Below, in pieces: positions 3,225-37,209 of a DNA stretch of 64,000 bases (position 1 is the first letter of the stretch; each line of letters opens with the position of its first letter). Source of the DNA: Squalus acanthias (Eukaryota); NCBI GenBank assembly GCA_030390025.1, contig CM059431.1:110548001-110612000 (forward strand). The letters are read 5' to 3'. The translations under genes and the position numbers were made by a program. Under the pieces are notes generated by a model that worked only from the letters and a program-made list of their open reading frames with translations, was not told where the DNA came from and did not search any database.

Positions 3225-3425
3225 TGATGTGGAGATGCCGGTGTTGGACTGGGGTGGACAAATGTGAGAAGTGGCACAACACCAGGTTATAGTCCAACAG
3301 CTTTATTTGAAATCACAAGCTTTCGGAGCGCTGCTCCTTCACCTGACGAAGGAGCAGCGCTCCGAAAGCTTGTGATTTCAAATAAAGCTGTTGGACTATA
3401 ACCTGGTGTTGTGCGACTTCTCACA
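3225..3425. mobile_element. Foldback pLTR insertion, family B, with hammerhead motif
   Basis: 12-bp TSD TCTGTGTTGTCA at 3213-3224 and 3426-3437. Arms 3262-3340 and 3348-3426 are near-perfect reverse complements around a 7-nt loop. Confidence 0.85.
3339..3375 (+). ncRNA. Minimal type I hammerhead ribozyme motif (family B)
   Basis: TCAC-CTGACGA-A-GGAGC-agc-GCTCC-GAAA-GC-TT-GTGA: stem I, CUGANGA core, stem II, GAAA, palindromic AGCU stem III, UH. Confidence 0.75.
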
Positions 3426-3802
3426 TCTGTGTTGTCAGACTGCTTGTCTGATATCCAGTCTTGGATGAGCAGCAATTTCCTCTAGTTCAACATTAGGAAG
3501 ACTGAAGTCATCGGTTTTGGCCCTCCCCACAAACTCTGTACCCTCGCCGCCACTGATTCCACCCCCATCCCTGGCAATTGTCTCAGGCTAAACCGGATTG
3601 TTCACAAACTCTTGTAGCCTGTTCAACCCTGAGCTGAGCTTCCAACCCCATACTCTTTCCATCGTAAAAGCCGCCTATTTCTACCTCGAACATTGGTCAC
3701 CTCCGCCCTTGCCTCAGCCCATCTATCACTGAATCCAAAATAACAACAGAAAACGCTGGAAAAACTCAGCAGGCCAGGCAGCATCCGTGGAGAGAGAAAG
3801 AG

Positions 3803-3839
3803 AGTTAACGTTTCAGGTCGATGACCTTTCATCAGAACT
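3803..3839 (-). ncRNA. Minimal type I hammerhead ribozyme motif (family A), KLF12 sense strand
   Basis: AGTT-CTGATGA-A-AGGTC-atc-GACCT-GAAA-CG-TT-AACT with palindromic ACGU stem III. Confidence 0.78.
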
Positions 3840-3925
3840 GGGAAGAGCCGGAAATCAAATAGATTTAAGGCCAGGGTAAAGCTGGGAACCCTGGCCTTAA
3901 ATCTATTTGATTTCTGGCTCTTCCC

Positions 3926-3962
3926 AGTTCTGATGAAAGGTCTTCGACCTGAAACGTTAACT
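3926..3962 (+). ncRNA. Minimal type I hammerhead ribozyme motif (family A)
   Basis: AGTT-CTGATGA-A-AGGTC-ttc-GACCT-GAAA-CG-TT-AACT. Confidence 0.78.
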
Positions 3963-4734
3963 CTGTTTCTCTCTCCACGGATGCTGCCTGGCCTGCTGAG
4001 TTTTTCCAGCGTTTTCTGTTGTTATTTCGGATTTCCAGCATCCGCAGTATTTTGCTATCGTATCACTGAATCCAAGTCTTTGTCATCTCCAGACTCAACT
4101 ATTCTGATGTTCTCCTAACCAGCCTCCATTCCAGCATGCCCTGTAGACTTCAATTCATCCAAAATTCTGCTACCTGTTTTCTATCCTGTACAAAGTCCTT
4201 ACCCATCACCTCTGGCCTTGCTCACCTACATTGACACCTGATCCCCCAACGCCTCAAATTAAAATTCTCATTTTCATATTTAAATCCCATCGCGGCCTCA
4301 CCCCTCCCCATCTCTGTAACCTCCTCGAGTCCTAAAACCTCACCCCACCCAAATTCTCCATTCCTCTGACTGGCCTATTGTGCATACCCCCCCCCCCCCG
4401 CCCCTCCCCTTCCCCAGCATTGGCAGTCGTGCCTTCAGCCATCTAGGCCCCACGCTCTGGAATTCCTTCCCTAAACCCCTCCATCTCTCCACCTTCCCCA
4501 TCTTGCTTTAAAGCCCTCCTTAAAACTCAGCTCCTTGACCACGCTTTTGGTCACTTTTTCTAATATCTCCTTCTTTGTCTCAGCATCTATTTTTGCCCGA
4601 TTATACCTCTGTGAAGTGCCTTGGGACATCCTTAGCTGTTATATACATTTTTTTATTGTTGCTGTTGTGCCTTGGAATCTTGAGTATCAGAACCATCAGA
4701 AGGGGCTAGCGCGTGACTGCAATTTCATCTGAGG

Positions 4735-5781
4735 TCTCAAATTTCTGAACTGTCTCAAGGTCCTTGCAGATAAGTGTGAGACTGACTTGCAACTCACCTG
4801 CAGCCCTGTGGGCCCAGTGTCTTTTGACATAAATAGCTGGGGGCATTGGTATTAGCAAGATGGTACCTCCGGAGGAACTTCATTGGCGTGTTATCCTAAA
4901 TAACATGCTGAAATCCTGCAGTCGGACTTGCACCCATATCCTTCTGACGCGAGGCTTTGGAACATGCAAATTCCGACAATCTGATTTGATTAGTCAATTG
5001 TAGAGTAAAACAGACATTCTTCTATTTTTCAGCACCTCATCTTCCGATTAGGCACTTTACAGCCTTCCGGACGCAATATCGAGTTCAACAATTTCAGATC
5101 ATAACCTCGGCCCCCACCATATATACATTTTATCCACCCTTTTGGTTTGTGCCTTTTTCCTTTTTTTTTCTCTCTCTCTCCCCCTACGGCACCTGTCTCT
5201 CATTCTGCCAGCATTTCACACTTCACCTTTTGTTTCTTAAATCTGTCCCATTACCATCTCGTCTTGCCTTGAGCATCTCTTAATGTCTCTACTTACCATA
5301 GTTATTCCTCCCCCCAGCCTCCCCCTTGCATTTTTATCTGTTTAATTTCCTGCTCTTTTCTCAGTTCTGATGAAGGGTTTCGACCTGAACCGTTAACTCT
5401 GTTTCTCTCTCCACGGATGTTGCCTGGCCTGCTGAGTTTTTCCAGCGTTTTCTGTTGTTGTTTCAACTCTTCTATTTTTGTTTGTTAAGAGCGATTAAGC
5501 TTAAAATACCCAAATTATGGTCTATAAAGTTGGTCGGTGAAGTTCTATTTTTCCTCACAAAAAATTATTTGAGGAGCATTAAGTTCAAGAAATGACAAGT
5601 CAAGAGTTTCCAAAACAGTTTCAGTCAATGGATCAATCCAGGAAGCAAATTTTCCAAATACATAAAGATCAGCCTCTCAAATTTCGGAACTGTCTCAAGG
5701 TCCTTGCAGATAAGTGTGAGACTGACTTGCAACTCACCTGCAGCCCTGTGGACCCAGGGTCTTTTGACATAAATAGCTGGG
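4735..5781 (+). repeat. 107-bp direct duplication (4735-4841 and 5675-5781)
   Basis: 3 mismatches in 107 bp, 940-bp offset. Confidence 0.95.
5030..5467 (+). mobile_element. 5'-truncated Penelope-like element (ORF end + pLTR, family A)
   Basis: QHLIFRLGTLQPSGRNIEFNNFRS* matches the ORF end at 23560-23638. Hammerhead motif 5363-5398 has GAAA changed to GAAC. 12-bp TSD TCTTCTATTTTT at 5018-5029 and 5468-5479. Confidence 0.85.
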
Positions 5782-6229
5782 CGGGGGGGGGTTGGTAACT
5801 TTTTGTAAATTGGTATTCCACAAACCTGTACAATTACTTTTTTTGGCCAATGGTGAAGGTTATTAGTTTTGCATGCTTCTAGCAAGATGTAAACATGTAG
5901 TGAGATATAACTGTGTCCAGGTGCAGTGTTCAGGCCCTGGGATGTTTGTGTTTGAGTACAAACTTAGCAGCAAGGCGAGATTCTGTGTTATGCACATGGA
6001 GGAAAGTCTTTTTTTGGACATGCTGGTTCCTGGGTTGGAGAAAATGAGTACCGAATATAATGTAAACTGTGTTAACAGCAGAAGCACCTGCCACAGACAC
6101 AAAAGATTTTTCACCTTATTGACCACAACACGCATTATTGTGCCTTGCTCGCGGTCAAGACTGCCTACTGTTCTAGGATCAGGGAAAGGGCAACCCAAAG
6201 CTTCTTTTCTCTTTCCCGCTTTCTAAAAT

Positions 6230-7725
6230 CCCTTTCCGTTTCTCCCTCTACCCTTACCTCCAACACCTGTGTGCAGACTTTCGTCATTTCTAAGCTCTAT
6301 CCACCAAGCTGCCTCTGTTATAATCCCTCTCAGCCATTCTAGACTTGATCCCCGATCACCTTGTAGTTTCTCGCCCATCTCCCCCTCACTCACCTCTTCC
6401 ATGAGACCCACCACCTGCTCTCTTGATCACCTCCACATGCAACTTTCCCTTTTGCCCCCCTGTATTGATGGCTCCCTTTCCTTAGACACCAACCCTGTCC
6501 CTTTCAAAACCACCAACATAACTCGCTCCTCAAAATATCCACTTTAAGCCCATTTGTCCAATCTACTACAATTGCCTCTCTTACCTCCCAATCATCTCAA
6601 GTCTTCAAAAAATCTTTCCTCTCCCAACTCCATGCCCACCTCTCTCAAAGCTCCCTATTTGAATCCCTCCAGTCCAGCTTCCACAGTTCTCGCAATAACA
6701 AGATAACCCAGGCCAGAGTCACAAATTACATCCTCTGTGATTGGTGCATTATCCTCCTTGACCTCTTTGCATCATTTGATATGGTTGACCATTCTATCCT
6801 CCACAATCCTTTCTAATCATTGCTCCATTCTATGAGATTGCCCTCTGTGGTAACACTCATACCTATCCGAATGCATTCAGTGCATCTCTAGGAATGGCTT
6901 TTCTTCCCACCTCTGCACAATTACCTCCAGAATCCATCAAGGATCTATCCTTGGCCCCCTTCTCTTCCTATTCTACATACTGTTCCTCGGTGACATCAAC
7001 TGCAGTCATAGGGCCAGTTATCATATGCATGCTGAGGGCAGTTAGGTCTACCTCTCCACCACCGCTTTGAATCCACAGCCACCTTCACTCTGCCAGGTTG
7101 CCTCTCTGACATCAGATGAGTCACCACTTCCTCCAGTTGAACATTAGGAAGGTCAAGCCATCGTTTTCAACCTCCACCATAAACTTAGCTCTGCTGCCAC
7201 TGACTGCACCCCCTCAGGCTGAAGCAGACTGGCTTTCCAACTTCCACCCTCCATAAATTGCAACTTTTCCAAAATGTAACCTGCCCCAATAGTTCTTTAC
7301 TCCAATCCCACATTAAATTTAACATCCTCATCTTCAAATCCCTCCACGGCCTCATCCTACCCTAACCTTACAGCTTCCTTCAGCCTTACATTGCCTCTTA
7401 CAACATTTTGACAGTGAATACACTTCAAAATTACCTCATTGGCTGAAAAGCATGTCCTGAGGTCGTGAAAGGTGCTATATAAAAGTTTGTTCTTTCTTTC
7501 GCCTTTAGGTCCTCTGACCTGTGTGTTCTACCTGACCCTTTTGCCCCACAAAGCCTAAGCCACATCAATTCTACGATCTGGATCTCCCACCCTCAACCTT
7601 TCCATTTCTCTCTGGCCTTAAAAACCCATCTTTTCAACAAACCTTTTGGTCAACTGTCCTAATCCCTCGCTTCATGACTTAGCGCCTGTTCCCCTATCTA
7701 TTTCCATTTGTAACACTTTTATGTT
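6230..7725 (+). mobile_element. Old, decayed L2 LINE remnant
   Basis: Pyrimidine-rich sequence paralleling 2790-4670 (FESLQSSF and QGSILGPLLF-like stretches); includes a short SINE tail at ~7400-7500. Confidence 0.65.
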
Positions 7726-7764
7726 AAAGGTCTTGTATCAATGCAAGCTGTTGTAGCTTCCTAC

Positions 7765-7922
7765 CTGTATGCGTCCTCCTATGTGCTTTCAAATGAGAGC
7801 TTTTTGTGTACACTTTATTGCAGCCCTCAAAATCACACCTGTGTATGCGCCGTTTCTTCGAGTCAGGGGACTCAGATCTTCGTTGTCGTCTTGTACCCTC
7901 AATACTGAAAGGTGAATCCGAA
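7765..7922 (-). CDS. KLF12: KLF12 coding exon (basic region + C2H2 zinc finger 1), 158 bp
   Basis: Reads (x)[52 protein letters not shown](G), recognisable as KLF12. Acceptor ccttctttttcag precedes 7922; donor GTAGGA follows 7765. Phase 2 start, phase 1 end. Confidence 0.96.
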
Positions 7923-8004
7923 CTGAAAAAGAAGGACACAATGACCATATAATAAAAAGCAAATCAGAACTGATTGTTACATTGGGTAAATTATCTCACG
8001 TGGA

Positions 8005-8281
8005 GGTAAGATAATTGGCCAAAGAACCAGAGGCGACATGAGGATAAACATTTTTTACGCAGCGAGTAGTTATGATCTGGAATGCACTGCCTGAAAGGGT
8101 GGTATAAGAAGATTCAATAATAACTTTCAAAAGGGAATTGGATAAATACTTGTAGGGGGAAAATTTGCAGGGCTATGAGGAAAGAGCAGGGGGAGTGGGA
8201 CTAATTGGATAGCTCTTGCAAAGAGCTGGCACGGGCATGATGGGCCGAATGGCCTCCTTCTATGCTGTATCATTCTATGAT
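8005..8281 (+). mobile_element. CR1 3' end
   Basis: FFTQRVVMIWNALPERVV followed by the tail GGGCCGAATGGCCTCCTTCT...TTCTATGA. Confidence 0.85.
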
Positions 8282-8313
8282 CAACATGACATGATAAATA
8301 TCAAAGAGATAAG

Positions 8314-8610
8314 GGCCTAGAAATTGTTACCTTTAGCGCTGGTCGTTAAGGTCGGTTTTGAAGAAAAAATGGCGGCCGCCTCGCTTCCACCCACTTCCGG
8401 CGCGGAGCGTGACAGCCGCCATATTGGGCAGGTTGGCAGTGCTGCCATTGCCTGCACTCACCGCAAGTATTTTAATTACCAGGAGCGTGACGTCAATCGG
8501 CGTGCTGCACCAAATTGATGCACGTTCAGCGATTTTGGATGTCGCCGCTCCTCTTACCGGCCTCGGCAGCCGTTGACAGCGCGTAGAGCCGGGAGAAAGC
8601 GGCGTTGAGC
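8314..8610. mobile_element. GC/CpG-rich MITE-like fragment (one end)
   Basis: Begins GGGCCTAGAAATTG like other MITE termini in the window; CpG-rich block in an AT-rich intron; second TIR not identified. Confidence 0.45.
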
Positions 8611-9344
8611 TATGAACCTACTTATAGTATAGTAAACATTCTGTACAATTCACATTTACCGAGCTGCTTTTAAATAAGTTACACCCAAATAACTGACTTC
8701 AATCGTCTTTCAGTTTATTGCAAAAATTCTTTAATATGATCCAGATCGAGCTGGCTTTTCTTTTGTTGCTGCTTAATTTAATTTTTTTTGATCTTTTCGT
8801 CAAGATCCTGTTTGCATCAAGAAAATGCTGATAAACCTGCTGAAGAAAGAAATATTAAGATTTATGGAGGGCTTTTTTGTTCTTATTGAAAATCTTAACT
8901 TCTCAACTGGCCCCATAATCTCATTAAAACGGGAAATGGCAATTTGCATTGCCTGGGGAATTGGGAGGAAGCGGGGGGTGGGGTGGGGGGTGTGGGTGGG
9001 GGTAGCGGTGTAACTGTTACAAAGATGACTGCCCGAGAGGCTGTCTGGCTGGATTCTGGTACTGTTTATTAGATCTCCGCCAAAGTCTTCAATACCTCTG
9101 CAGAGTATGTCCAGTCCCGTGAGATGGTTCATGGTGATTGGTGAAGAAACACATCAGCAGATTGAATGCCTGTTCTATATACACTTTAGATGCCGGCACT
9201 CAACCGGAGCAGGCCAGTAAGTTCTGGCACTTAATGTGTACAGAACAGCATGTGGCTACAAACAGTCTTGGGGGACTTGTGCTGCAGCTAAAGGCCAGAT
9301 CCATTATTGTCGCTTGCAGTTGTGTCAGGAAACCGGAAATGAAT

Positions 9345-10185
9345 TTTTTTTTTAAATTTGTTTTTTATGGGATGTGGGCGTCGCTGGCAATGCCAGCATT
9401 TATTGCCCATCCCTAATTGCCCTTGAGAAGGTGGTGGTGAGCCGCCTTCTTGAACCGCTGCAGTCTGTGTGGTGAAGGTACTCCCACAGTGCTGTTAGGG
9501 AGGGAGTTCCAGGATTTTGACCCAGCGACGATGAAGGAACGGCGATATACTTCTAAGTCAGGATGGTGTGTGACTTGGAGGGGAACTTGGAGGTGGTGGT
9601 GTTCCTATGAGTCTGCTGCCATTGTCCTTCTAGGTGGAAGAGGTCGCGGGTTTGGGAGGTGTTGCCGAAGATGCCTTGGCGAGTTGCTGCAGTGCATCTT
9701 GTAGATGGTACACACTGCAGCCACGGTACGCTGGTGGTGGAGGGAGTGAATCTTTAAGGTGGTGGATGGGGTGCCAATCAAGCGGGCTGCTTTGTCCTGG
9801 ATGGTATCGAGCTTCTTGAGTGTTGTTGAAGCTGCACTCATCCAGGCAAGTGGAGAGTATTCCATCACACTCCTTACTTGTGCCTTGTAGATGGTGGAAA
9901 GGCTTTGGGGAGTCAGGAGGTGAGACACTCGCTGCAGAATACCCAGACTCTGACCTGCTCTTGTTGCCACAGTATTTATGTGGCTGGTCCAGTTAAGTTT
10001 CTGGTTAATGGTGACCCCCAGGATGTTGATGGTGGGGGATTCGGCGATGGTAATGTCGTTGAATGTCAAGGGGAGGTGGTTAGACTCTCGCTTGTTGGAG
10101 ATAGTCATTGCCTGGCACTTCTGTGGTGCGAATGTTACCTGCCACTTATCAGCCCAAGCCTGAACGTCATCCAGGTCTTGTTGCG
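9345..10185 (-). mobile_element. Non-LTR retrotransposon (CR1/L2-related group) RT C-terminus and 3' tail
   Basis: ORF 9605-10108: ILGVTINQKLNWTSHI...IYKAQVRSVMEYSPLAW...LDTIQDKAARLI. Tail GGATGGGCAATAAATGCTGGC...CCCACATCCC plus A-run. Confidence 0.88.
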
Positions 10186-10590
10186 TGTGGGCATTTGGGC
10201 CTCGTAAATGTTTATTGTTATTGTTCCAAATGTCCGTGTTGAATATGCATCCTGTTCCTCTGATGTAACAGGTGCATGCTTATTACTTTTCCAATGAAAG
10301 GAGACCTAACAACCTTTTCCTGTTTCTGAAGGAATTTGTACTTATTTGCATTTACTCGTATTGATGTTCAGGTGTTTGGGGTATCCAGTTAACTTTTTAC
10401 ATCTCTTGCTTTATTCAGCGAGGAGTCATGGATCACCTATGCCAGCTCTGACATCCAGTATTGCAAACAAATCTCCCAATTCCAGTACACCATTGCCCTT
10501 TCAAAATGGTTATCCGGGTACTTTCTAGAGAGATATCCTCCCAAAAAGGCTTGCAGTGAAAAGCCTCTGTAATAACAAAGCTTATTCATT

Positions 10591-11573
10591 ATAGAGTCAT
10601 AGAGTTATACAGCACAGAAAGAGGCCCTTCGGCCCATCGTGCCCGCGCCGGCCATCAAGCCCTGTCTATTCTAATCCCATTTTCCAGCACTTGGTCCGTA
10701 GCCTTGTATGCTATGGCGTTTCAAGTGCTCATCTAAATGCTTCTTGAATGTTGTGAGGGTTCCTGCCTCTACCACCCTTTCAGGCAGTGAGTTCCAGATT
10801 CCAACCACCCTCTGGGTGAAAAAGTTTTTCCTCAAATCCCCTCTAAACCTCCTGCCCCTTACCTTGAAACTATGCCCCCTGGTTATTGACCCCTCTGTTA
10901 AGGGGAAAAGTTCCTTTCTATCTACCCTATCTATGCCCCTCATAATTTTGTACACCTCAATCAGGTCCCCCCTCAGCCTTCTCTGCTCTAAGAAAAACAA
11001 CCCCAGCCTGTCCAGTCTCTCTTCATAGCTGAAGCGCTCCAGCCCAGGTAACATCCTGGTGAATCTCCTCTGCACCCTCTCCAATGCAATCACATCCCTC
11101 CTATAGTGTGGTGACCAGAACTGCACACAGTATTCCAGCTGTGGCCTAACTAACGTTTTGTACAGCTCCATCATAACCTCCCTGCTTTTATATTCTATGC
11201 CTCGGCTAATGAAGGCAAGTATCCCATATGCCTTTTTAACCACCTTATCTACCTGTCCTGCTGCCTTCAGGGATCTATGTACATGCACACCAAGGTCCCT
11301 CTGATCCTCTGTCCTTCCTAGGATCCTACCATTCATTGTGTATTCCCTTGCCTTGTTAGTCCTTCCAAAATGCATCACCTCACACTTTTCAGGGTTAAAT
11401 TCTATTTGCCACTGTTCTGCCCATCTGACCAACCCGTCTATATCGTCCTGTAGCCTGAGGCTTCCCTCCTCGCTGTTTACCACTCCAACAATTTTCGTGT
11501 CATCTGCGAACTTACTGATCATACCTCCTACATTCATATCTAAATCATTAATGTACACTACAAACAGCAAAGG
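10591..11573 (-). mobile_element. CR1 LINE 3' fragment with uninterrupted 299-aa RT C-terminal ORF
   Basis: YINDLD...SKFADDTK...RPQLEYCVQFWSP...FFTQRVVGIWNSLP; no stops 10671-11570; (CTCTATGA)-type tail. Confidence 0.95.
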
Positions 11574-14267: not shown

Positions 14268-14703
14268 CTTTTATTCATTCACAGGACATGGGTGTCGCTG
14301 GCTGGCAAGGCCAGCATGTATTGGCCATCCCTGATTGCCCTTGAGGAAGTGGTGGTGAGCCGCCTTGTACAACTGAGTGGCTTGCTCGGCCATTTCAGAG
14401 GGCAGTTAAGAGTCAACCACATTGCTGTGGGTCTGGAGTCACATATAGGCCAGACCGGGTAAGGACAGTAGATTACCTTCCCAAAAGGACATTAGTGAAC
14501 CAGATGGGTTCTTTCAACAATCTGGTAGTTTCATGATTACCATTATTGAGGCAAGCTTTTTTTTTTTAAATTCCAGATATATTTAATTAACTGAATTGAA
14601 ATTCCCCAGCTGCCGTGGTGGGATTTGAATTCATGTCTCCAGATCATTAGTCCAAGTTTCTGGATTACTAGTCCAGTAACATAACCACTATGCTACCGTA
14701 CCC
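14268..14703 (-). mobile_element. tRNA-derived SINE sharing its 3' tail with the LINE at 9345-10185
   Basis: Head GGGTACGGTAGCATAGTGG (A box)...GAATTCAAATCC (B-box-like); 14285-14365 aligns with 9370-9447. Confidence 0.8.
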
Positions 14704-14898
14704 TTAATATTTCTTGAGAAGGCCAATGCAGGCTGCAAAGAAGTGGAACAGCAGTTTAGATTGCTGCACCAACTCTGTTGCCTATAGGGCCCCAAGGACT
14801 CTACCACGCTGTCGACAGCAGCAGCATCCAATCTTGTCAGCAGTGTTGATTCGTAAATGAGGTGGTGCTGCAAGTGAAATCGGGGCTGCGGTGGACAA

Positions 14899-17615: not shown

Positions 17616-18070
17616 AAAAGAAAAAAGACCTGCATTTATATAACGCCTTTCACAACCACTGGATGCCCCAAAGTGCTTTACAGCCCATGAAGTGTCGTCA
17701 CTGTTGTAATGTAGGAATTGCAGCAGCCCAATTTGCGCACAGCAAGCTCCCACAAACAGCAATGTGATAATGACCAGATAATCTGGGGTGTTTTTTTGTT
17801 GATTGATGGATAGATATTGGCCAGGACACCGGGGATAACTCCCCCTGCTCTTCTTCAAAATAGTGCCATGGGATCTTTTGTGTCCAGCAGAGAGGGAAGC
17901 CAACGCTTCAGTGTAATATCTCATCTGAAAGACGGCACCTCTGACAGCGCCGCACTCCCTCAGCACTGCACTGGAGTGTCAGCCTAGATTTCTGTGCTCA
18001 AGTCTCTGGAGTGGGAATTGAACCCACAACTTTCTGATGCAGAGGTGAGGTGCTACCCACTGAGCCACAG
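17616..18070 (-). mobile_element. Deu-domain tRNA SINE (SacSINE1-like), full length
   Basis: TGGCTCAGTGGG A box, GGTTCAATTCC B box, Deu-like core GGTGCCGTCTTT...GATCCCATGGCACTATTT, L2-like tail. Confidence 0.85.
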
Positions 18071-18900: not shown

Positions 18901-19116
18901 ACAAATGAAGTCAAGAGAGACACCAAAAAAAGTCACCAGGGTGGGTCTTCGCCAATTTTCTTTTTAAAAAGGCCTAGATTTTCCTGGTGCCATTAACTTT
19001 TTTTTAATCCGGTGACTTTAAAAAAAAAATATTATTACCTCGCATTGATGATGATAACCTTGTGAAATAACCTTATTGCCGCTGTTAATGGAAGAAAAAT
19101 GAGTATCCAGGTATAA

Positions 19117-19334
19117 AAGTGAGAAGTCGCACAATACCAGGTTATAGTCCAACAATTTTATTTGAAATCACAAGCTTTCGGAGCGCTGCTCCTTCGTCAG
19201 GTCACTTCACCTGACGAAGGAGCAGCCGCTCTGAAAGCTCGTGATTTCAAATAAAGCTGTTGGACTATAACCTGGTGTTGTGCGACTTCTCACTTTTGTC
19301 CCCCCCAGTCCAACACCGGCATCTCCGCATCTTC
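19117..19334. mobile_element. Foldback pLTR insertion, family B, two opposed hammerhead cores
   Basis: 11-bp TSD TCCAGGTATAA at 19106-19116 and 19335-19345. CTGACGA...GAAA cores at 19168-19204 (-) and 19207-19244 (+). Confidence 0.85.
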
Positions 19335-19564
19335 TCCAGGTATAAGGCAGTGAAATTACCAATCTTCCTGCTAAATGTCAGCAGGGAAAGGGACAACTCA
19401 AGGTTGCTGACAACTCTGTTTTCTGTTTTTTTTTTGCTGTGATTACCTTCCTATCCTTACACAAGTCCTGTCATGCGTGGGGCAGAATTCCAACTCGCAT
19501 TTTTTCGGGAGCAGCACGGCTTGGAGTTAAACACATTTTACTTGTTGCTTCGAAGTAGTGCCGT

Positions 19565-21915: not shown

Positions 21916-22562
21916 AGGGGAAAAATTGGGTCGCGCCCCCTTTGGGGCGCTAACTTCGCTGGGGCGAAAATGTTGGCGCTCCTGCACTGGAAATTGAATG
22001 GTAGCGCCCCAGGCAGGAGACGGGGCGCTACTGGAAGCGCTCCCCCTCCCTCTTGGGGCGCTACCATTCAAGATCGCGCGCTACGTGCAGCAGTGCCACG
22101 CGTGTCGGCTCGTAGCGCCGCGGTACTGCAGGCCTCCCTCCCCCGATTAAAGGGGAGGGGCCTAGCGCAGCACACACCGGGGCCCTGCTGGACCACCGGG
22201 GAGCGGGGCGCTGGGAAAACAGCCCGGCACTCAAGAGGAGCGCTGGGTTGACCGATCGCGGCCGACACCCGCAGGAGGAAGTGAGGTGGGGGGAGCAGGT
22301 GCTGGCAGGCGGCCCAAAAAAAATGGCCGCCCGGCACCTGCCCTTTAATTTGCGCCGCCGCGGCCGCAAACACAACACCCTGACCCTATCGGGCATAGCG
22401 TCTGGCGGTAGGTCAGCGGGCACAAGCTAAGTTTGCGGCCGGGGCGCGAGCGGGGCGATAACGTCATCGCCGCGGGGCGCTACCGGCTACCGCAGCTGAA
22501 TTTCGCGGGAGGCGTTACTGGTGCCGCTAACGGGAGGTGCAAATCAACCCAATTTTTCCCCC
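21916..22562. mobile_element. GC-rich MITE
   Basis: Perfect 15-bp TIR GGGGAAAAATTGGGT at 21917-21931 and 22547-22561; opposite-orientation relative of 43066-43709. Confidence 0.88.
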
Positions 22563-23307
22563 ATAGACTTTCCCCTATGCCTATCACTGCATCTTCAGAG
22601 TTCATCTGTTGTTGGCAGGTCCAGAAAATGAGCCTGCCTCCAAAAACAAGAACCATTTTTAATCTAGAATTTGGATTCTGCCCACTCCAGATCTGGAGTA
22701 TGAATCCATCCAAATGCTCATTCCCACGCAAAATGTTCCAAAGGAATATTAGGCAAATGTTTCCGACGAACCATCTTTTAGCGCAAGAAAATCTCCCCCT
22801 GCAGAAGTGTTGAGCAAATTTTTTTCCTGTTTGTCTGATGAGTGGCCGCATGAAACCGATGACATCATTGAAGTAAAGCGTCATTCGGTTGCTTGCAAAG
22901 GATGTCACCACGGCTAGTGCGCCATGTTTGCTGTTTCATTGGCTGTGAAGAGCTTTGAGCCTTCTTGAGGACATGAAAAAGGCGCTATATAAATGCAAGT
23001 TTGCCCTTTGTGTGCTACTGGGAACAAAGGCAGTATCGCTTTTAGCATTATCGGCTTGTTTAACGTGCATTTCCATTTTAAACCACAAGATGGCGCAGGT
23101 GAAATGCATTGCTTTTCATGCAACAAAGCTGAGTCTCCCAGCTGATGGAAACTTTGAATAGGGGAACTAATATAATTTTTGATAACTTCCCCTCTCAAGG
23201 AGGGCATAGGGTATTTGTAAGATTATGCCTAGAGGATGTATTTTAGTCAAAGTTGAAAGCTGTAATGGTCCATCTATATAAAAACTTAGCAAGAACACAG
23301 TTGCAGT

Positions 23308-23903
23308 ACTCCTTCAGGGTGAAACAGCGATTTACTTGTGCTTCTTACACTTTAGTATACTGTATTCGCTGCTCGCGATGCGGTCTCCTCTGCATTGGGG
23401 AGACCAAACACAGACTGGGCGAGCGTTTTGTGGAACACCTCTATTCAGTCCCTAAGCGTGAGCCCGAGTTTCCGGTCGCCTGTCACTTTAATTCTCCGCT
23501 CCACTCCCACTCTGACTTCTCCGTCCTCGGCCTCTTAAACTGTTCCAATGTAAGCTCGAGGAACAGCATCTCATCTTTCGATTAGGCACTTTACAGCCTT
23601 CTGGACTCAACATCGAGTTCAACAATTTCAGACCATAACCTCTGCCCCTATTTTTTCCACATGGCAGCTGTTGATGATTCTGCTGTTCCCATTTACACCT
23701 CTTCGAGACTCATCTTTCATTTCTTTACTTGTCCCATTACCATCTCCTTTTGCTTTGTACACTCATACCTTTTGTCATTTAATCTCTCCTGCCTTCCACC
23801 CCATCACAGACCTTCCCTTTTGTTCTTTCCTCCCCTCCTCCCTTTCCCTGCCCTTACTTAAAATCTGTTACTTCTCTAACTTTTTCCAATTCTGATGAAA
23901 GGT
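23308..23903 (+). mobile_element. Penelope-like element: GIY-YIG endonuclease C-terminal region + 3' UTR, pLTR truncated by CR1
   Basis: FTCASYTLVYCIRCSRCGLLCIGETKHRLGERFVEH...VACHFNSPLHS, frameshift near 23550, then KLEEQHLIFRLGTLQPSGLNIEFNNFRP* (stop 23636-23638). Ends at CTGATGAAAGGT. Confidence 0.9.
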
Positions 23904-24857: not shown

Positions 24858-24861
24858 CAAC

Positions 24862-25379: not shown

Positions 25380-25642
25380 AATAACAACAACAACAACTTG
25401 TATTTATATAGCGCCTTTAACATAGTAAAACGTCCCAAGGCGCTGCACAGGAGTATTATAAAACAAAAAATTTGACACCGATCCACATAAGGGGAAATTA
25501 GGGCAGGTGACCAAAAGAGGAGCGCAGATAGCTCGGGGGGGGGGGGGGGGGGAGGTTGTGGGGCTGAAGGAGATTACAGAGATAGGGAGGGGCGAGAGGC
25601 CATGGAGGGATTTGAAAACAAGAATGAGAATTTTGAAATCGC
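25380..25642 (-). mobile_element. L2 3' fragment with internal deletion
   Basis: (CAA)n CTTGTATTTATATAGCGCCTTT tail; LAPPYLCNLLQ motif. Confidence 0.82.
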
Positions 25643-26139
25643 AGACAGTTTAAATAGCAGACAGAGGAATGCCATGCAAGTGTGTGCCTGCTAATATGAC
25701 CAACAGCAATTACTAGCCTTTCATCCACCTACGCTCAACACCAATGCACTCTTCTGATGCCGACTCATCCATTTTCACAGAGGTGCTGACTGAACCTGGA
25801 GAGACAGATTTGCCCAAAGTCAATCGGGTGGTAGACATCAACTGCTAAGACTTCCCTTCGATCTGTGCAGTGACCTGTGTTTGAGGATGGAGATTAACCA
25901 TTTTTTTGTCACTTTGCCTTTAGTCAGAAGTCACACTAGTGTGATTCTTTGACATTGCACTGTGTGTCTGTAAACAAACTTAAGATTTACCAATTTTTTG
26001 TCAGAAATTCTTCAATATTAGCATTTTTGGAAAGATAATTAATGCATGCTTGAACTCATTGGCTTATCCTAAAATTACTGGGGGTGAAATTTTTTTGCCA
26101 TTATACAATGGACTAACAAACCAGGGGCCAGCTCACAAG

Positions 26140-26212
26140 TTTTTCCAGCTGAGTTTTTCCAGCGTTTTCTGTTGTTATTTCGGATTTCCAGCATCCGCAG
26201 TATTTTGCTATC
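26140..26212 (+). mobile_element. Very short Penelope pLTR 3'-end insertion (family A)
   Basis: Identical to the 3' end of the 3739-4060 copy; 13-bp TSD GCCAGCTCACAAG at 26127-26139 and 26213-26225. Confidence 0.85.
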
Positions 26213-28732: not shown

Positions 28733-29825
28733 CCAACAACAACAACTTTTATTTATATAGCACCCTTAACGTAGCAAAACGTCCCAAGGTGCTTCACAGG
28801 AGTGTTATAAGACAAAAAATTTGACACGAGCCACATAAGGAGAAATTAGGGCAGGTGACTTGGTCAAAGAGGTGGGTTTTAAGGAGCGTCTTAAAGGAGG
28901 AAAGAGAGGTAGCGAGGCGGAGAGGCTTAGGCAGGGAATTCCAGAGCTTAGGGCCTAGGCAACAGAAGGCACGGCCACCAATGGTGGAGCGATTATAATC
29001 AGGGATGCTCAAGAGGCCAGAATTGGAGGAGCGCAGAGAGATGACGGTGGGAGAAAAGCAGAGAGGTATATACAGGGAGAAAGACAATTTAAAAAAAAAT
29101 GTCTGAACATCACCAAAGGAGATCAGCTGATAATAACTGATAAGCCATTAACAGTAGAATCGCAATATTAATGATTCCACCACCTAGAATGCCAATTTAA
29201 GTATATTAAAAAAAAACCTAACATGCTAAAATTTCTTCAAGCCAACAATGTATAATATACTCTTCAGATTTTAAGGAGCGTCTTAAAGGAGGAAAGACAG
29301 GTAGAGAGGCGGAAAGGTTTAGGCAGGGAATTCCAGAGCTTAGGGCCGAGGCAACAGAAGGCACGGCCACCAATGGTTGAGCGATTATAATCAGGGATGC
29401 TCAAGAGGGCAGAATTAGAGGAGCGCAGATATCTCGGGGGGAGTTGTGGGGCTAAAGGAGATTACAGAGATAGGGAGGGGCGAGGCCATGGAGGGATTTG
29501 AAATCGAAGCATTGCTTAACTGGGAGCCAATGTAGGTCTGCGAGCATGGGGGTGATGGGCGAACGGGACTTGGTGCGAGTTAGGACACGGGCAGCCGAGT
29601 TTTGGATGACCTCAAGTTTATGTAGGGTAGAATGCGGGAGGCCAGCCAGGAGTGCGTTGGAATAGTCAAGCCTAGAGGTAACAAAGACATGGATGAGGGT
29701 TTCAGCAGCAAATGAGCTGAGGCAAGGGCGGAGACGGGCGATGTTACGGAGGTGCAAATAGGCAGTCTTAGTTATGCTGCGGATATGTGGTCGGAAGCTC
29801 GTTTCAGGGTCAAATATGACACCTT
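28733..29825 (-). mobile_element. L2 LINE fragments (28733-29038 and 29268-29825) with a ~160-bp segment present twice
   Basis: HLRNIARLRPCLSSFAAETLIHVFVTSRLDYSNALLAGLP...IQNSAARVLT...LHWLPV; GRAFCCLGPKLWNSLP occurs twice; (TTG)n tail. Confidence 0.92.
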
Positions 29826-30054
29826 AAAATTACATTTTAAAATGGACTGTGTAGTATAACGTTTAATCTGAATTGCAACGTAGAATGCAAGGTAGCCCCC
29901 CTATTCATCACAGCAGAGTTTCCTTCTACACTATCTGGGGGGAGGTAGCAACCTTGGGGTGTGGCACTGCCCAGGCTGGTGAGATGCAACTCCGAGGGCA
30001 GGTCCGACCATTATGGTTTTGTGTACCTTCCAGTGGCTGGCTTATAAGGAGCTT

Positions 30055-30640
30055 TCATAGAATCATACAGCATAGAAGGGGGCCATTCAGCCCATTGTGC
30101 CTGTGCCGGCTCTTTGAAAGAGCTCTCCAATTTAGTCCCACACCCTAGTTTTCTCTCCACAATGCTGCAAATTAGTTCTCTTCAAATACCAATTGCCTTT
30201 TGAAAGTTCCTATGGTATCTGATTCTACCACCCTTTCAGGTAGTGCGTTCCAGATCATAACAACCCTCTGTGTGAAATAATTTATCCTCATTTTCCTCTA
30301 ATTCTTTTGCCAATTATTTTAAATCTATGACCTCTGGTTATTGACCCACTTGCAGTGGAAACAGATTCCCCCTACTTGCTCTATCAAAAGCCCTCATAAT
30401 TTTGAACACCTCTATTAGGTCTCCCCTTAACCTTCTCTGCTCTAAGGAGAACAATCCCAGCTTCTCCAATCTCTCCACATAACTGAAGTCCCTCATCCCT
30501 GGTATTATCCTGTTAAACCTCCTCTGTACCCTTTCCAAGGCCTGGACATCCTTCCTAAAATGTGGTGCCCAGAATGGTACACAATACTCCAGCTGAGTTT
30601 AGCATAACTACTTGTTTTTTGTATTCAATACACCTATTTA
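30055..30640 (-). mobile_element. CR1 3' fragment
   Basis: ERVQRRFNRIIPG...EQRRLRGDLIEVFK; CR1 tail. Confidence 0.88.
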
Positions 30641-31039
30641 CAAAGCAACGCCCCTATTTGCAAACCTTTGTCCTGGAAACAGCCTACTTGCCTACCCTTT
30701 TGGCTGAGGAATGGTGTATGGCATGGAGGTTGCCTTAGGAGAAGAAGGAGAAAGTAATACAAAAATGGGGATTAGGAGAAAAAGATTGCAGTAATTAATT
30801 TATCCACAAGTAAAATGGATTATGGTTTTTGCGTTATGCCACCCTTCAGCAGAAATAGCTGCTGGGTTAGCAGCCTCTGTAATGAGTAGGCAAAGATCAA
30901 CATCTCTACCTTGGATTAGAAAAACTCTGTGGCTCTCCGAAGTAGCAATCTAATTAGAAGGATCTTGCATAATAATTTACAGCTACAAAGCCAGTGTTAC
31001 TTGCAATAATTTTCCGAGAGTTTCTTGTTAAAACCTTCA

Positions 31040-31200
31040 CCTTAAAACCTACCTATTTGACCAAGCTTTTGGTCACCTGCCCTAATTTATCCTTATGTGG
31101 ATCGGTGTCAAATATTTTGTCTTAAAATACTCCTGTGCAGCGCCTTGGGACGTTTTACTATGTTAAAGGCGCTATATAAATACAAGTTGTTGTTGTTGTT
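31040..31200 (+). mobile_element. L2 3' end
   Basis: AAAGGCGCTATATAAATACAAG(TTG)n tail. Confidence 0.85.
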
Positions 31201-31824
31201 AAGAGTTTAATGTGAAGAAGGACATTTGAATAAACACGGTAATGCGTTGCTGTGCAAGAGAGAATGCTTCAGGTTACAGGGGAAAGCATTTAAACATCGA
31301 GTGATACGTATCCCTTACAAGGAATTGGTTACATCCGAATAATAGTAAAAAAGGGTAGAATTTTTTTAATCCCTCATTCTTTTGAAAAATTATAAATTCT
31401 GTCTGGTTAGAATACTAATTGGGATTTTCCTCAAGGTAGACTAGAAATCATCGGAAATCTCCCAATCTTTCAGTGTTCCATTTTGTTGCGGCTTAAAAGA
31501 AAAATAAGGATAAATTAGGGCAGGTGTCCAAAAGGTTGGTCAAAGAGGTGGTTTTAAGGAGAAGGTTTGAACAAGAAACTCTTGGAAAATTATGACTCTA
31601 TGACTTCATGCAACTGTATGGTGAGGACAAAATGCCACGGTTGATGAGCAGTTGCAATGTTTGTATGGGGTGTATTCCCTATGATGTGGAAATGAAACAG
31701 CGTAGGATTGTATCTCTACCAACATTACAAGGGAAATGCTGCAGGTAGGTGGATTTTACAGTCAGGCTGCCCTGTTTGAAGATTGCCCCGACCCTTTCCC
31801 CTAGCCCTGGCCTGATACTTATCG

Positions 31825-32182
31825 TTAACACTTTCACGACCTCAGGATGTTCCACACCCAACGAAGTACAGTTTTTTTGACGTGTTGTCACAGTACCAAT
31901 AATGGGAATCCTGGCAGTCAATGTACAAATAGCAAGGTCCCACAAACAGCAGTGAGATAAATGACCAATTAAACTGTTTCTTAGTGATGTTTGAATCATG
32001 CCATGGTATCTTTTACATCCACCCGAGAGAGTTGACAGGGTCTTGGTTTAATATCTCAGCCAAAAGATGGCACCTCTAACTGTGCAGCACTCCCTTAGTA
32101 CGACACTTAAGTGTCAGCCTAGATATCTGCTCCAGTCTCTGGAGTGGGGCTTGAACCCTTGACCCACTGAGCCAAATCTGAC
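31825..32182 (-). mobile_element. Deu-domain SINE, diverged
   Basis: Similar to 17616-18070 with deletions. Confidence 0.7.
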
Positions 32183-33149
32183 ATCTAGAGGAAATCTGAA
32201 CACCTGCCACAAAATACACTGAGCTAAAGACCATTATTAACTCTCACAGCTGAGAAATTCTAGCCTCAAGTTACTGAAACAATTTAATGGTAAATCTAGG
32301 GCCAATGGAGGTTTAAATGTTTAATTGTTGTGTTTCAGAGCTAACAAAAGTTTTGGTATTGAAAGGTGGTTTTACAACTAACAAAGAGCAGACAACATAA
32401 ACCCAGACCCAAAATCAGAGTCCATCTGAGCTGAAATGGTTTGGCAGAATAGAACCAAACAAACCTTGATGGACTGGCGCTCAGGATAAAGTTTAACTGG
32501 ATGTATAACAACAGTTTACTGGAGTTCAACAGTGTGATTAAATATAACTTCACTTTAACATGTTCACGGCACTATAATGAATTAAATATAGGCAGGAAAG
32601 ATTTATTTTCACATGGGTTGAGGTATTGGGTCCTCATTCACCACAAGTCACACTGTTTCTCATTAAGTTCATTTTTCACTTTTAACATTCATTTTATTTT
32701 ATTGATTGCTTTACTTTAAAGTATGACAGTTGTGGCTTAAAAGTCATTTAATGGCATCTACAATACAGATGAATAATTCAAATTTGCCTTTACATGTTGT
32801 TCAGTGTCTTACAGTTTACAAGCATCTCCACATGAGAAAGGGCAAACAGCAGGTCAGTGACAAACAGCACTTGCTCCATAGATTGTCGTCCGTTCCCCAG
32901 ACTTTAATCTTGCCACAATTTTAGTCGCGTGTAAAACTGGGCATCTAGTTGCACTGGCTCCCTTACTCATAAAAAAAATTGGGATGGCTGACTCTGTATA
33001 GCTTTGACACGCCAAAGTAAAGTTACATTTAACCACGCTAGTGTAAATTCACCTGAGCCCCAGCAAACTGTTGTCCATGTTTAGTAAAAGAATAGGATTT
33101 AAAGAAGTACAGTTTCTCTGATAATTAACATTAAAGGAAAAATGAAATG

Positions 33150-33710
33150 ACTACCATTCATAGAGCACCCTTCACATCCTTGGAATGGCTGAAAGCACTT
33201 CACAGCCAGTTTACTTTTGAATTGTAGTCACTGTTGTGAGGACAAACGTGACAGTCAACTTGCTCACAACAAGGTGCTGCCAGAAGCAAATGAATCAATG
33301 ACTAAATCGTCTGTCTTTGATAAAAAAAATACTGCGGATGTTGGAAATCTGAAATAAAAACAGGAAATGCTGGAAACACTCAGCAGGTCAGGCAACATCT
33401 GTGGAGAGAGAGAGAAACAGAGTTAACGTTTCAGGTCGATGGCCTTTCGTCAGAACTGGAACTGAAAGGTCATCGCCCTGAAACGTTAACTCTGTTTCTC
33501 TCTCTCTCCACAGATGTTGCCTGACCTGCTGAGTGTTTTCCAGGATTTCCTGTTTTTATTTCAGTCTGTCCTTGAACCTGGCGTTGGTCGAGGTTGGAAT
33601 GTTGGCCAGGACATCAGAATTCCCTATTCTTTAAATATAGTGACATGGGGATTTTTTACATTCACCTGAACAGGCGGACATGGTCTCGGTTTAACGCTTC
33701 ATCTGAAAGG
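33150..33710 (-). mobile_element. Diverged Deu-domain SINE interrupted by a Penelope foldback
   Basis: SINE tail 33150-33320 resumes at 33576 (GTTGGCCAGGACA...CTCGGTTTAACG). Confidence 0.65.
33321..33563. mobile_element. Foldback Penelope pLTR insertion, family A
   Basis: TSD GTCTGTC(T/C)TTGA at 33309-33320 and 33564-33575. Minus-strand hammerhead motif 33421-33457 (CTGACGA..GAAA-CG-TT); the plus arm starts within the core. Confidence 0.85.
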
Positions 33711-35735
33711 AGGATGTGACATGCTCAATTTTTCCCTTATCTTCATGACCGAAAATATCTTGGCGTTCCATACACCTTTTGTGATCAAGGGGATAGAGGG
33801 GAGGATGATTGACCTCTGCCAGTGCAGTTCTTCGTGCAGCCTCTAGGAGCTGTGAGATAATAATCCCTATCCTTCGTGAGAAAGTACCTGGCTTCATTTA
33901 GCATCTCTTCATAGCAGTGCGGCTACTCTTGGGAAGCCAGTGGCATGGTGGGGGGTGGGGGGTGGGGGAAGGAGGTAATCAAACCGGTGTCCTTCCACCT
34001 AGGGTTGACACCTGGCTGTTCTTCTACCTGCCCAGCCAGGTTTTTGGAACAATTGATTGCCATTTGGTAGTTTTTTTAAAAATCAGCAATACGGTGGCCA
34101 CGTGCATGTTGAAAGCTCGGGTTTCCAACTCTGGCTGGAGATATTCCTGAAGGTGTTATCTCATGACCTCCTGCCACTGACCCAACACTCCTGCCATTGG
34201 TTACCCGACACGTCCATCCTCGCTACGCACGCCAATTGTAAAGTGAGCAGACTCTTCATTACCCGATTGGATGATACTTGACCGTTAGTCACAGAGCCAT
34301 TTTTCCCGATATAACAAATAAACAAAAGGGTGAAAAGAAATTTTTTTTTTTAAATGCACTATTTTTTTTATTGCCCCTATGATTTTTCTCCTGGGTGTTG
34401 CTCACAGCAGTCTCCTGGAGACTCCAGGGCAAGCCTGGAGGGTTGGCAACCCTATTGAGAGCCTTAGCACAACAAATGAAAGTCGACACCGTACTGCTGG
34501 TTAAAAATGTCAGCTGACAACGGCTGGCTCTTTCAAAGCTGACCATTTCAAAAACTGCCAGGTGGCAAGTCTGCCTCTGTTCTCTGCTGCGCTGTGTCAC
34601 TTAGTAAAGCAGGGTGCATTTTGCCATAATAGTAATGTAGGTAAATGGTTTGAAAGCTACCTTGTTATTGGATCCAAGTCACAAAGCAATTGAGTATGAA
34701 TGAACTGTACTTTAAGTAGGTTTATTTATAAAAGGTGGAGAAAAGCCAGCCAGACCTAATTGTGAACTGTCTCATAAACACATCCAGCCCACTTCCTGCT
34801 GTTTTGCAGTTTGGAAGATCACCTGTTGCTTTTGGCTTACTGCCAGGCTGGGACTTAACAGAAATTATAGAATCAGTTAGAAATTGGATGGATCTGTTCT
34901 TGCAAGTACCAAAAATGATGGTCAATATGAAAGCAGACTGGTGCACCAAAACTGGCTGACCGAAAGCAGTAACTTTGTAGCGAGCGATAGGATTCCTTTC
35001 CAATCTACTCAATTGCCAACCGTGCAATTAACAGCTGAAGGCCTTTTAAAAACAAAACAGAACAAAGATTCACACAAATAGTGTCAGCATCATTTATCTG
35101 TGTTCCTTTAAATATAAAGGAAATAGTGCTGATGTGTGAAATGTTAGTTTTCCTTTTTAAAGGAAATGTGTATGTTATAGATTATCAATAGACTGGTGAT
35201 CTACTCTTGGGCACATGCTTGGTGCTTTGATTGGGTTTACTTTTGACATTCATGGTAATCTTGACACTATCTCCGCAGTCTTGCTCAGCTCATAGCTGCA
35301 GTTATCAATAATATTAAGGAAAAACTGCAATGAGGCGAATAAAGTATGATAAAGATACTTTAGAATAATTTGCCCCACACATCCATCTTGGTTGGGAATA
35401 GTTACTCCATTATAGGTTAAGGATTTTTGTTCTTTCTCTGAATTTGTAACTGAAATGTCACGTTTACTACAGTCGCAGATATATGCATATGTTACTGGGT
35501 TTCTAACACTTGACCTGTCTGCAGTAAAGGCCTATGTAAACACTGAGTGAGATTTTATGATCTATGATATATGATTGGGGGAATGCAATAAATGATGGCG
35601 AGCATGCCAAGAACACTTTTACTTTTAAAGCAGCATGTGCTTGTTATTACAAAATCTGAACCAGCTTCAAGGTTTCTGTCTCTGTGCTCCAGAGATTAGG
35701 AATCAGTGATCAGGAATTTTCACATTTTAGGCTTT

Positions 35736-36656
35736 GAAAAGAAAAGAAAGACAGACTTGCATTTATACAGTGCCTTGCACAACCTCAGGACGTCCCAGAG
35801 CGCTCTACAACCAATGAAGTACTTTTTTTGAAGTGTAGTCACTGTTGTAATGTAAGAAGCGTGGCAGCCAATTTGCGCACAGCAAGCTCCCACAAACAGC
35901 AATGATAATGAATTAGCGTGTCAGCCATGGCTCAGTGGGTCAGAAAGTTGTGAGTTCAAGTCCCACTCGAGAGGCTCAAGCACAAAAATCCAGGCTGACA
36001 CTCCAGTGCAGTGCTGAGGGAGCGCTGCACTGTCAGAGGTTCCGTCTTTCGGATGAGACGTTAAACCGAGGCCCCGTCTGCCCTCTCAGGTGGATGTAAA
36101 AGATCCAATGGCACTATTTCGAAGAAGAACAGGGGAGTTATCCCTGGTGTCTTGGCCAATATTTATCCCTCAATCAACATCACTAAAAAAACAGATTATC
36201 TGGTCATTATCACATTGCTGTTTGTGGGAGTTTGCTGAGCGCGAATTGGCTGCCGTGTTTCCTACATTACAACAGTGACTCCACTTCAAAAGTAATTCAT
36301 TGGCTGTAAATCTTTGGGACATCCTGAGGTCATGAAAGGCGTTATATAAATGCAAGTCTTTCTTTATATAATCTGTTTTTATGTGTTGGTTGTGGAATAT
36401 ATATTGGCCAGGACACTGGGGAGAACACCCCTGTTCTTCTTTGAAATAGTGCCATGGAATCTTTGACATCCACCTGAGAGGGCAGACGGGGCCTCAGTTT
36501 AATGTCTCATCCAAAAGACGGCACCTCCCACAGTGCAGCACTTCGTCGGTACTGCACTGGGAGCGTCGGCCTGGATTCTGTGCTCAAGTCTCTGGAGTGC
36601 GACTTGAACCCAAGGCCTGCTGACTCAGAGCGCGAGAGTGCTACCCACTGAGCCAC
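35736..36656 (-). mobile_element. Deu-domain SINE (tail 35736-35911, body/head 36368-36656) split by an oppositely oriented copy
   Basis: The two minus-strand pieces are contiguous in the family consensus. Confidence 0.85.
35919..36366 (+). mobile_element. Deu-domain SINE, near full length
   Basis: TGGCTCAGTGGG, GTTCAAGTCC, Deu-like core, tail GAAAGGCGTTATATAAATGCAAGTCTT. Confidence 0.88.
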
Positions 36657-37003
36657 TGCCTTAAAAGTCCTAACATTCCAGTGTTCATGGAGTCAAGGCT
36701 TCATAACATAATCCCCTTCATACTGCCAAGGGCCATGAACATATCAAGTTTGATCACCATGAATTGGATGTGCATTTAAATACCTAATATCACTGTCTTT
36801 CTGGATTGTTGCAATGTAGAAGCACACCTAACACGAGATTGACAGGGATAGGGTGCCTCTACCCGAGCAGAGGGTATCATATAAACAGAACCAGTCACAA
36901 GACTGATGCTGACTGGAAACCTGCTGCCGTGAAACTGCATGTGATTAGATGCACTCTTTAGACTAGTAGGGATAAAATAAAAATGAATAACTAACAAGAA
37001 AGA

Positions 37004-37209
37004 CCTGATGTGGAGATGCCGGTGTTGGACTGGGGTGGACAAATGTGAGAAGTCGCACAACACCAGGTTATAGTCCAACAGCTTTATTTGAAATCACAAG
37101 CTTTCGGAGCGCTGCTCCACTTCACCTGACGAAGGAGCAGCACTCCGAAAGCTCGTGATTTCAAATAAGCTGTTGGACTATAACCTGGTGTTGTGCGACT
37201 TCTCACATT
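37004..37209. mobile_element. Foldback pLTR insertion, family B, hammerhead motif 37122-37158 (+)
   Basis: 12-bp TSD TAACAAGAAAGA at 36992-37003 and 37210-37221; TCAC-CTGACGA-A-GGAG-cagca-CTCC-GAAA-GC-TC-GTGA. Confidence 0.85.

Follow-up and report, generated by a model that had tools for sequence, protein, structure and literature searches.

The question raised by a 64,000-nucleotide (nt) stretch of Squalus acanthias DNA (GenBank assembly GCA_030390025.1, contig CM059431.1, positions 110,548,001 to 110,612,000; the whole stretch is termed the window in the following) is how three short palindromes, each built around a hammerhead ribozyme motif and together referred to as family B, came to be there. 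They occupy positions 3225-3425, 19117-19334, and 37004-37209 and are 201, 218, and 206 base pairs (bp) long. A first-pass annotation of this DNA had suggested that each hairpin is rebuilt upon insertion, through fold-back of a tiny ribozyme RNA without open reading frame (ORF). From the analysis described here, the palindromes are short insertions of an autonomous Penelope-like element (PLE) in head-to-head arrangement. They would probably arise from two internally started complementary DNAs (cDNAs) that reach the 5′ end of the mRNA of this element, run off it, and are then joined.

The coordinates originally assigned to the three palindromes and their target-site duplications (TSDs) of 11-12 bp were confirmed, and cores of the minimal hammerhead claimed for them were located in all three; the palindromic portion exists as described, albeit slightly longer than the estimated 165 nt or so, with self-BLAST returning 172-184 nt at 91-95% identity. 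Every copy is made up of one tail-bearing and one tailless arm, which lie in opposite orientations and both point outward. Arm coordinates are counted from C3, the first base of the CUGA hammerhead core, and the first value given for each arm is its start at the junction. In copy 1, the tail-bearing arm (3225-3340, minus strand) runs from +5 to the ORF start and the tailless arm (3337-3425, plus strand) from −6 to about +83, a 4-nt overlap (3337-3340) being common to both. The minimal type I hammerhead of this copy, comprising stem I, core, stem II, GAAA, and a palindromic AGCU, lies at 3339-3375 on the plus strand with its core at 3343-3367, and the hammerhead consensus predicts a cut after 3371. 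The two 12-bp TSDs are at 3213-3224, the final 4 nt of which also match the start of the element's ORF, and at 3426-3437. The tailless arm of copy 2 (19117-19202, minus strand) extends from −2 to about +86; its minus-strand core (about 19200-19172) is intact, and most of the 5′ strand of stem I is lost. The tail-bearing arm (19202-19334, plus strand) covers −9 to +120, followed by three extra bases, and includes a predicted transcription start A at 19204 and a hammerhead at 19207-19244 with the core at 19211-19236; the 11-bp TSDs are at 19106-19116 and 19335-19345. Copy 3 is composed of a tail-bearing arm (37004-37118, minus strand, +8 to +121) and a tailless arm (37118-37209, plus strand, −8 to about +85), with a predicted transcription start A at 37119 and the hammerhead at 37122-37158 (core, 37126-37150), both on the plus strand, and with 12-bp TSDs at 36992-37003 and 37210-37221. 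That the junction differs in every copy is true for these three but not genome-wide, where some junction types recur.

An arm-derived 32-mer has 31,854 exact matches in the 3.7-Gb genome and a younger variant of it has 18,520, these counts including both arms of one insertion; the sum exceeds 50,000, reversed controls gave none, and the abundance is not due to chance. Many of the 30 best DNA matches extend upstream of the core, three of them reach an ORF, and a 2.7-kb insertion among them has an inverted arm of 450 bp. In a protein search, 150 of 15,924 candidates were scored; all were 96-100% identical, and seven had open frames of 921 codons. Of the 20 loci that were fetched because of long frames, 10 contain an ORF of 892 amino acids, the ATG of which coincides exactly with the tail end. 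The family B arm represents the 5′ untranslated region (UTR) of this element and, as a pseudo-long terminal repeat (pLTR), its 3′ end. The 892-amino-acid protein matches Pfam RVT_1 (E=9.6e-09) and contains the reverse transcriptase (RT) motifs GLKF, DKG, DVSALY, GTAMG, and YIDD, an RT-endonuclease linker C-x4-C-x2-C (CHGKLCKTC at 753), and a C-terminus of the GIY-YIG type (VYLIRCRKECTAAWYIG at 791, two inner cysteines, and histidines at 820 and 836). Pfam did not call a GIY-YIG domain on the protein itself, and a PDB sequence search with the C-terminal 143 amino acids returned no relevant match; protein relatives at 32-39% identity carry PF01541. The closest named relatives come from sharks (80-95% identity). 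Further Penelope-like features of family B are the pLTRs, an inverted 5′-truncated copy, a tail of 30-40 bp, the TSD, and the hammerhead within the pLTR. Judged from its sequence and by published features, family B would be classified as an autonomous, endonuclease-positive PLE of the Neptune or Nematis type; the linker motif CX2-5CxxC has been defined for Neptune and is also found in Nematis (PMC8557442). The link to PLEs made in the first-pass annotation is thus borne out, the arms being continuous with an RT and GIY-YIG ORF, and the element ending in this pLTR that it had advised looking for exists with intact ORFs elsewhere in the genome. The window contains no coding partner, as had been noted; full-element blastn matches in it are the three hairpins only. 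A stretch at 23331-23525 (plus strand) resembles the nuclease portion of the family B protein, with 37% identity (tblastn E=3e-07), and appears to be a remnant of another Penelope-like family.

The structure of the insertions was determined in a sample that included, on contig C1, the first 100 matches of the older 32-mer without omission. For the younger 32-mer, the first 30 matches were taken together with 40 further regions chosen partly as visible pairs, and 150 kb beside the window were added. This sample yielded 235 arms, present as 99 head-to-head pairs and 37 unpaired arms. In 97 of the 99 pairs, one short and one tail end are found, the former mostly at +80 to +90 and the latter mostly at +120 to +128; the tail arm extends about 35 nt beyond the short end, to the ORF start. 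TSDs of 11-14 nt border 79 of 98 pairs (12 nt in 44 of these), with shifted controls giving 2 of 98. Arm lengths are continuous from less than 50 nt to 3 kb, and 38 of the 235 arms continue into the ORF. Among 74 directly measured junctions, 35 have overlaps of 1-8 nt, nine are flush, 26 contain 1-56 extra bases, and four show long gaps. With 78 unordered junction types among 97 pairs and this range of arm lengths, the claim that the hairpins are not copies of one palindromic master is upheld; they are mostly built anew. Stump-stump, long-long, and mixed pairs number 60, 22, and 17 (expected 47, 9, and 42), and the two arms of one insertion usually share the haplotype (68 differences in 88 pairs versus 794 expected with random partners). 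Since they have haplotype and length class in common, paired arms derive from one RNA or one source locus. Long young arm pairs are mostly 0-1.2% different and usually mutual nearest relatives, an exception being locus L032 with 5.85%; because of this near-identity, two different RNA templates per insertion were rejected as the rule.

A probable reason why the junction adjoins the hammerhead can be read from the distribution of the arm 5′ ends. Positions −12 to 0 hold 92 of the 235 ends, with five at −25 to −13 and 25 at +1 to +13; when repeated junction types are collapsed (n=197), the respective values are 66, 5, and 19, and they are 19, 1, and 6 in the young subfamily (n=76). The ends concentrate at −9 to −2, and the arm that extends further ends at a position between −11 and −3 in 48 of the 60 stump-stump pairs. 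At the predicted cut site (+29/+30), there is no enrichment (7 of 197 ends in +23 to +35), and a junction at the ribozyme cut site was rejected as a candidate; contrary to a ribozyme-defined junction, as originally envisaged, the ends pile up before the core, at a site resembling a promoter. This site is an initiator-like TCA(+1)CTT with its A at −7, 127-132 nt upstream of the ATG. Across the 14 upstream haplotypes that are most frequent among 145 arms, the initiator A follows the start of a conserved TATA box (TATATA) at a distance of 29-34 nt, the intervening sequence being variable; a TATA box together with a TCACT initiator has likewise been described in rotifer pLTRs (PMC3846280). Position −7 would, on this pattern, be the 5′ end of the element's RNA, and the hammerhead would be central in the palindrome because it begins 7 nt after the transcription start.

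From copying of the cap, an untemplated G is expected at −7, as is known for LINE-1. Among the first 100 R-prefixed matches listed, G precedes A(−7) in 86 (by eye), and it is also found in spacers templated by neither arm; in several double cases, both arms end at −7, each with an extra base, around an unrelated spacer. An untemplated, cap-derived G at −7 is suggested by these data, although not proven. The same layout is found in a second hammerhead family of the window, family A (3732-4033, 33349-33564, and 53869-54019; two palindromes and one solo arm), where a TATA-like box is located 30-31 nt upstream of an initiator A at −4. Genome matches of family A that start at this A after a purine number 1,345; the G:A ratio is 68:32 before the initiator A and 7:13 one base up (by eye), the latter control at −5 being based on 20 rows after 80 of 100 rows, representing a subfamily with a templated A, had been dropped.

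In the favored pathway, the opposite strands of a target cut staggered by 12-13 bp would each prime one cDNA, and each arm would be a separate reverse transcription. The two cDNAs would be initiated internally at two sites close to the beginning of the ORF, at about +85 and, coinciding with the ATG, at about +122, and both would run off the mRNA 5′ end at −7. As the start sites are close to the ATG and a linear transcript would begin at −7, only cDNAs of 90-130 nt would be obtained from a linear template, and hence a hairpin of 200 bp. The cDNA ends would be joined head to head via microhomology or by blunt joining. Long arms would arise via tandem read-through or circular RNA, either of which would put a 3′ UTR upstream of the start sites; circular RNA has been proposed for PLEs (PMC4209133). 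Hammerhead cleavage would not be required for stump formation.

The best-surviving alternative is that the second arm is produced by self-priming, for which a cDNA or an antisense RNA would fold back on itself close to the hammerhead, at small inverted repeats or an RNA structure that would stall the RT; self-priming on an antisense template has been proposed for rotifer Penelope elements (PMC3846280). The overlaps of 1-8 nt at 35 of the 74 measured junctions would suit this route, and so would the recurrence of junctions on small inverted repeats, such as the 4-nt one of copy 1 or the TCA/TGA junction type seen in about 45 of 100 matches listed (by eye), and the haplotype that both arms have in common. 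Yet a fold-back copy can neither exceed the first strand at the 5′ side nor gain a tail, whereas, of 97 pairs, 47 have a tailless arm that exceeds its partner on the 5′ side by at least 5 nt, 30 have a further-reaching tail arm, and 20 are ties. Among young pairs (n=28), the tailless arm is the further one in 17 and the tail arm in seven, with four ties; it is longer in 15 of 21 pairs of more than 400 bp and also in the near-identical multi-kb cases L161, L177, and L170. Because the tailless arm is so often further-reaching, fold-back of one tail-primed cDNA is disfavored, and two primings fit better. The sharpness of the step at −12/−13, which lies at the TATA-initiator spacing, and the 1-56 extra bases at 26 of the 74 junctions also speak against a folded-back strand. 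Self-priming is considered unlikely. Of the de novo fold-back postulated in the first-pass annotation, the building anew of hairpins at insertion remains, while fold-back as the source of the second arm is not supported.

Several points, however, weigh against two cDNAs that run off a capped RNA end. The sample spans the first 13 Mb of one contig and 214 kb around the window, its young part was chosen partly as visible pairs, and arm end points obtained by BLAST are blurred by microhomology. The predicted RNA 5′ end at −7 is placed from the DNA pattern, no RNA 5′ end having been found among the matching runs, which were contigs without a record as RNA, and the promoter of D. virilis Penelope has been reported to be internal and TATA-less (PMC2377424). 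The untemplated G is a weak test within family B; G also precedes ends at −2 in 74 of 100 cases (by eye; Fisher p=0.05 versus −7) and ends at −4 in 86 of 100 among the matches listed, the latter being mostly two microhomology junction types. Full-length copies are without a sharp start, as two ORF-spanning arms are at −9/−7, two at −17/−19, and the rest range from +119 to −870. Finally, junctions are shared locally, as described below. Some of those now observed are thus not the original ones, and polarity swaps can occur, so that for old short copies the argument from arm length loses weight.

The first-pass annotation had instead seen in family B a small, ORF-less, retrozyme-like hammerhead RNA that would be excised by its ribozyme and mobilized in trans by a Penelope protein. 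In its favor, the hammerhead is structurally conserved. Over 23 haplotypes, 99.0% of the stem cells are paired, with compensatory changes in stems I and II; the covariation score is higher than in all of 500 shuffles, the number of covarying pairs being reached by 40 of the 500. The compensatory stem changes, together with a loop that varies from 3 to 9 nt across haplotypes, indicate that the hammerhead fold is under selection in the source elements. The core is not invariant, with CCGACGA (C for U4) in 27 of 299 arms, which belong to a young subfamily with intact ORFs; pLTRs with this core are found at L161, L162, L163, L166, L168, L173, and L176, where ORFs are intact or long and where mostly a linked, compensated change in stem II is present. 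In a motif-selected arm set, the downstream flank was as invariant as the core. Rfam gave no hammerhead match for the palindromes and microRNA matches below threshold only; stems I and II do form in monomer folds, the z-scores of which are near zero. Also compatible with a retrozyme are the reported derivation of animal retrozymes from Penelope pLTRs (bioRxiv 10.64898/2026.07.22.740005), the ORF-less state of most sampled insertions (60 of 99 pairs being stump-stump), and a short RNA that may start at a solo copy's own promoter. These points are outweighed by the arm structure. Same-strand neighbors within 700 bp number three among 235 arms, none forming an array; arms start upstream of the core and not at the cut site; and their lengths run continuously into the 3′ UTR and the ORF. 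Stumps are devoid of a TATA box and would, therefore, not act as sources. Considering also that the arm belongs to an autonomous element with intact ORFs, and that the head-to-tail arrays of non-LTR retrozymes are missing from the sample, the retrozyme reading is largely refuted and is regarded as very improbable.

Identical complex junctions are shared by loci that differ in their TSDs and have unrelated flanks (L068/L070, L077/L081, L110/L117, L064/L091, and two in L102). Two complex junctions were searched genome-wide, and exactly two copies of each were found, separated by 0.1 and 0.9 Mb on the same contig (L251/L252 at 2.94 and 3.04 Mb and L253/L254 at 8.77 and 9.68 Mb of contig C1); in L251/L252, the tail is on opposite arms. 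Amplification of a few palindromic masters as units, be it in the manner of miniature inverted-repeat transposable elements (MITEs) or as re-retrotransposed hairpins, would explain such sharing and is nevertheless regarded as very improbable, as both searched junctions are present only twice and close together, L068 and L070 have the same junction with the tail on opposite arms, the 97 pairs show 78 junction types, and a terminal inverted repeat reaching both ends is absent, the tail being on one side only. MITE-like amplification is disfavored also in that uniform master copies, a fixed interior, and a few fixed junctions dominating most copies, which the first-pass annotation had named as its hallmark, were not found. 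From the two tested cases, it is likely that some hairpin centers were overwritten after insertion by ectopic gene conversion from neighbors. The stem II loop length differs between the arms in 7 of 41 older pairs (15.6 expected at random), copy 2 of the window included, and gene conversion may be the source of these mismatches; the arm mismatch of L081 sits just past a tract that L077 has in identical form. Junctions of simple microhomology are seen repeatedly and widely, with either polarity. The locally shared junctions could serve as natural markers with which to follow ectopic conversion from one palindrome to another.

PLEs have already been described as having truncated copies in inverted orientation, tails, hammerheads in the pLTR, and motif pairs on opposite strands. 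In LINE-1 twin priming, two target nicks prime, and the resulting inversion is joined by microhomology, the pieces being derived from different parts of the RNA; two primings are likewise assumed for family B, the arms of which instead both represent one stretch, copied from two start sites that are fixed. With Neptune- and Nematis-type PLEs, family B has in common a single ORF for RT and C-terminal GIY-YIG with DKG, GxKF, and the CX2-5CxxC linker, as well as pLTRs from partial tandems, an inverted 5′-truncated copy, a tail of 30-40 bp, and a TSD (PMC8557442, PMC3846280). Unlike in the descriptions of those elements, the family B sample consists mostly of two-arm 5′-UTR stumps with a sharp 5′ limit at the predicted start, and copies amount to tens of thousands. 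For Poseidon of the green anole, in vitro work has placed an internal RT start site at each end of the tail, and the short and tail ends of the family B pairs match these two sites; cleavage and extension involve both strands of the target, and insertion still takes place with hammerhead mutants (PMC11167929). The Poseidon start sites are inside the ORF, and its hammerhead overlaps the ATG, while in family B the ATG marks the end of the tail, and the 5′ UTR of 127-132 nt contains the hammerhead; inverted two-arm products and run-off at the RNA 5′ end, which belong to the reading proposed for family B, are not treated in the accessible part of that study. The hammerheads of metazoan PLEs share with family B the minimal type I fold, an extra base before stem II, a palindromic stem III, many solo motifs, and opposite-strand motif pairs, there 100-700 bp apart; the young subfamily with C instead of U4 sets family B apart from those described in the same text (PMC4209133). 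Non-LTR retrozymes are similarly small, ORF-less, equipped with a type I hammerhead, and Penelope-related (PMC7229834; Li et al. 2026 preprint); they form head-to-tail tandem repeats with RNAs of 170-400 nt (PMC7229834), whereas family B forms head-to-head pairs with TSD that are continuous with an ORF-containing element.

No literature on shark Penelope palindromes, Penelope twin priming, start-site run-off, the arm-length test, or local junction sharing was found; subscription papers, Repbase, and supplements may hold such accounts. The origin of inverted and tandem structures in PLEs has been called undefined (PMC8557442). Family B offers tens of thousands of short products from whose ends the two RT start sites, the stagger of the cut, and, probably, the 5′ end of the RNA can be located; therefore, this origin becomes testable by counting. 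Palindromes of this kind are easily misread as retrozymes, MITEs, or microRNA hairpins. A more far-reaching scenario is put forward here only tentatively, being rather doubtful as a whole. The PLE reaction would be two-ended, with the nicked strands priming separate cDNAs at two fixed sites; linear capped mRNA would yield nothing but stumps, full-length copies would need circular or tandem RNA, and the break-prone palindromes would swap their centers with neighbors on the same chromosome. If this were true, the need for circular or tandem RNA would give the hammerhead its role, and a local gene-conversion network among tens of thousands of palindromes would be readable from unique junction tags.

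A few additional observations concern the insertions and the window. In the reference sequence of L032, part of the 3′ UTR (−124 to −49) matches inversely a stretch of the ORF region at about −1225 to −1157, 1.1 kb upstream, which is possibly the trace of an old inversion junction. Several independent insertions (L068, L098, L112, L115; L071, L083, L161, L165) have near-identical target sequences inside other repeats, which hints at preferred AT-rich target sites. Positions 21994-22071 of the window form an imperfect 80-bp palindrome that is 80% complementary. A single CUGAUGA...GAAA motif with a 3-bp stem at 22835-22855 (plus strand), outside families A and B, may be due to chance. Dispersed repeat families resembling short and long interspersed nuclear elements are numerous across the window, for example at 17619-18049, 35746-36635, 45007-45428, and 49076-49457.

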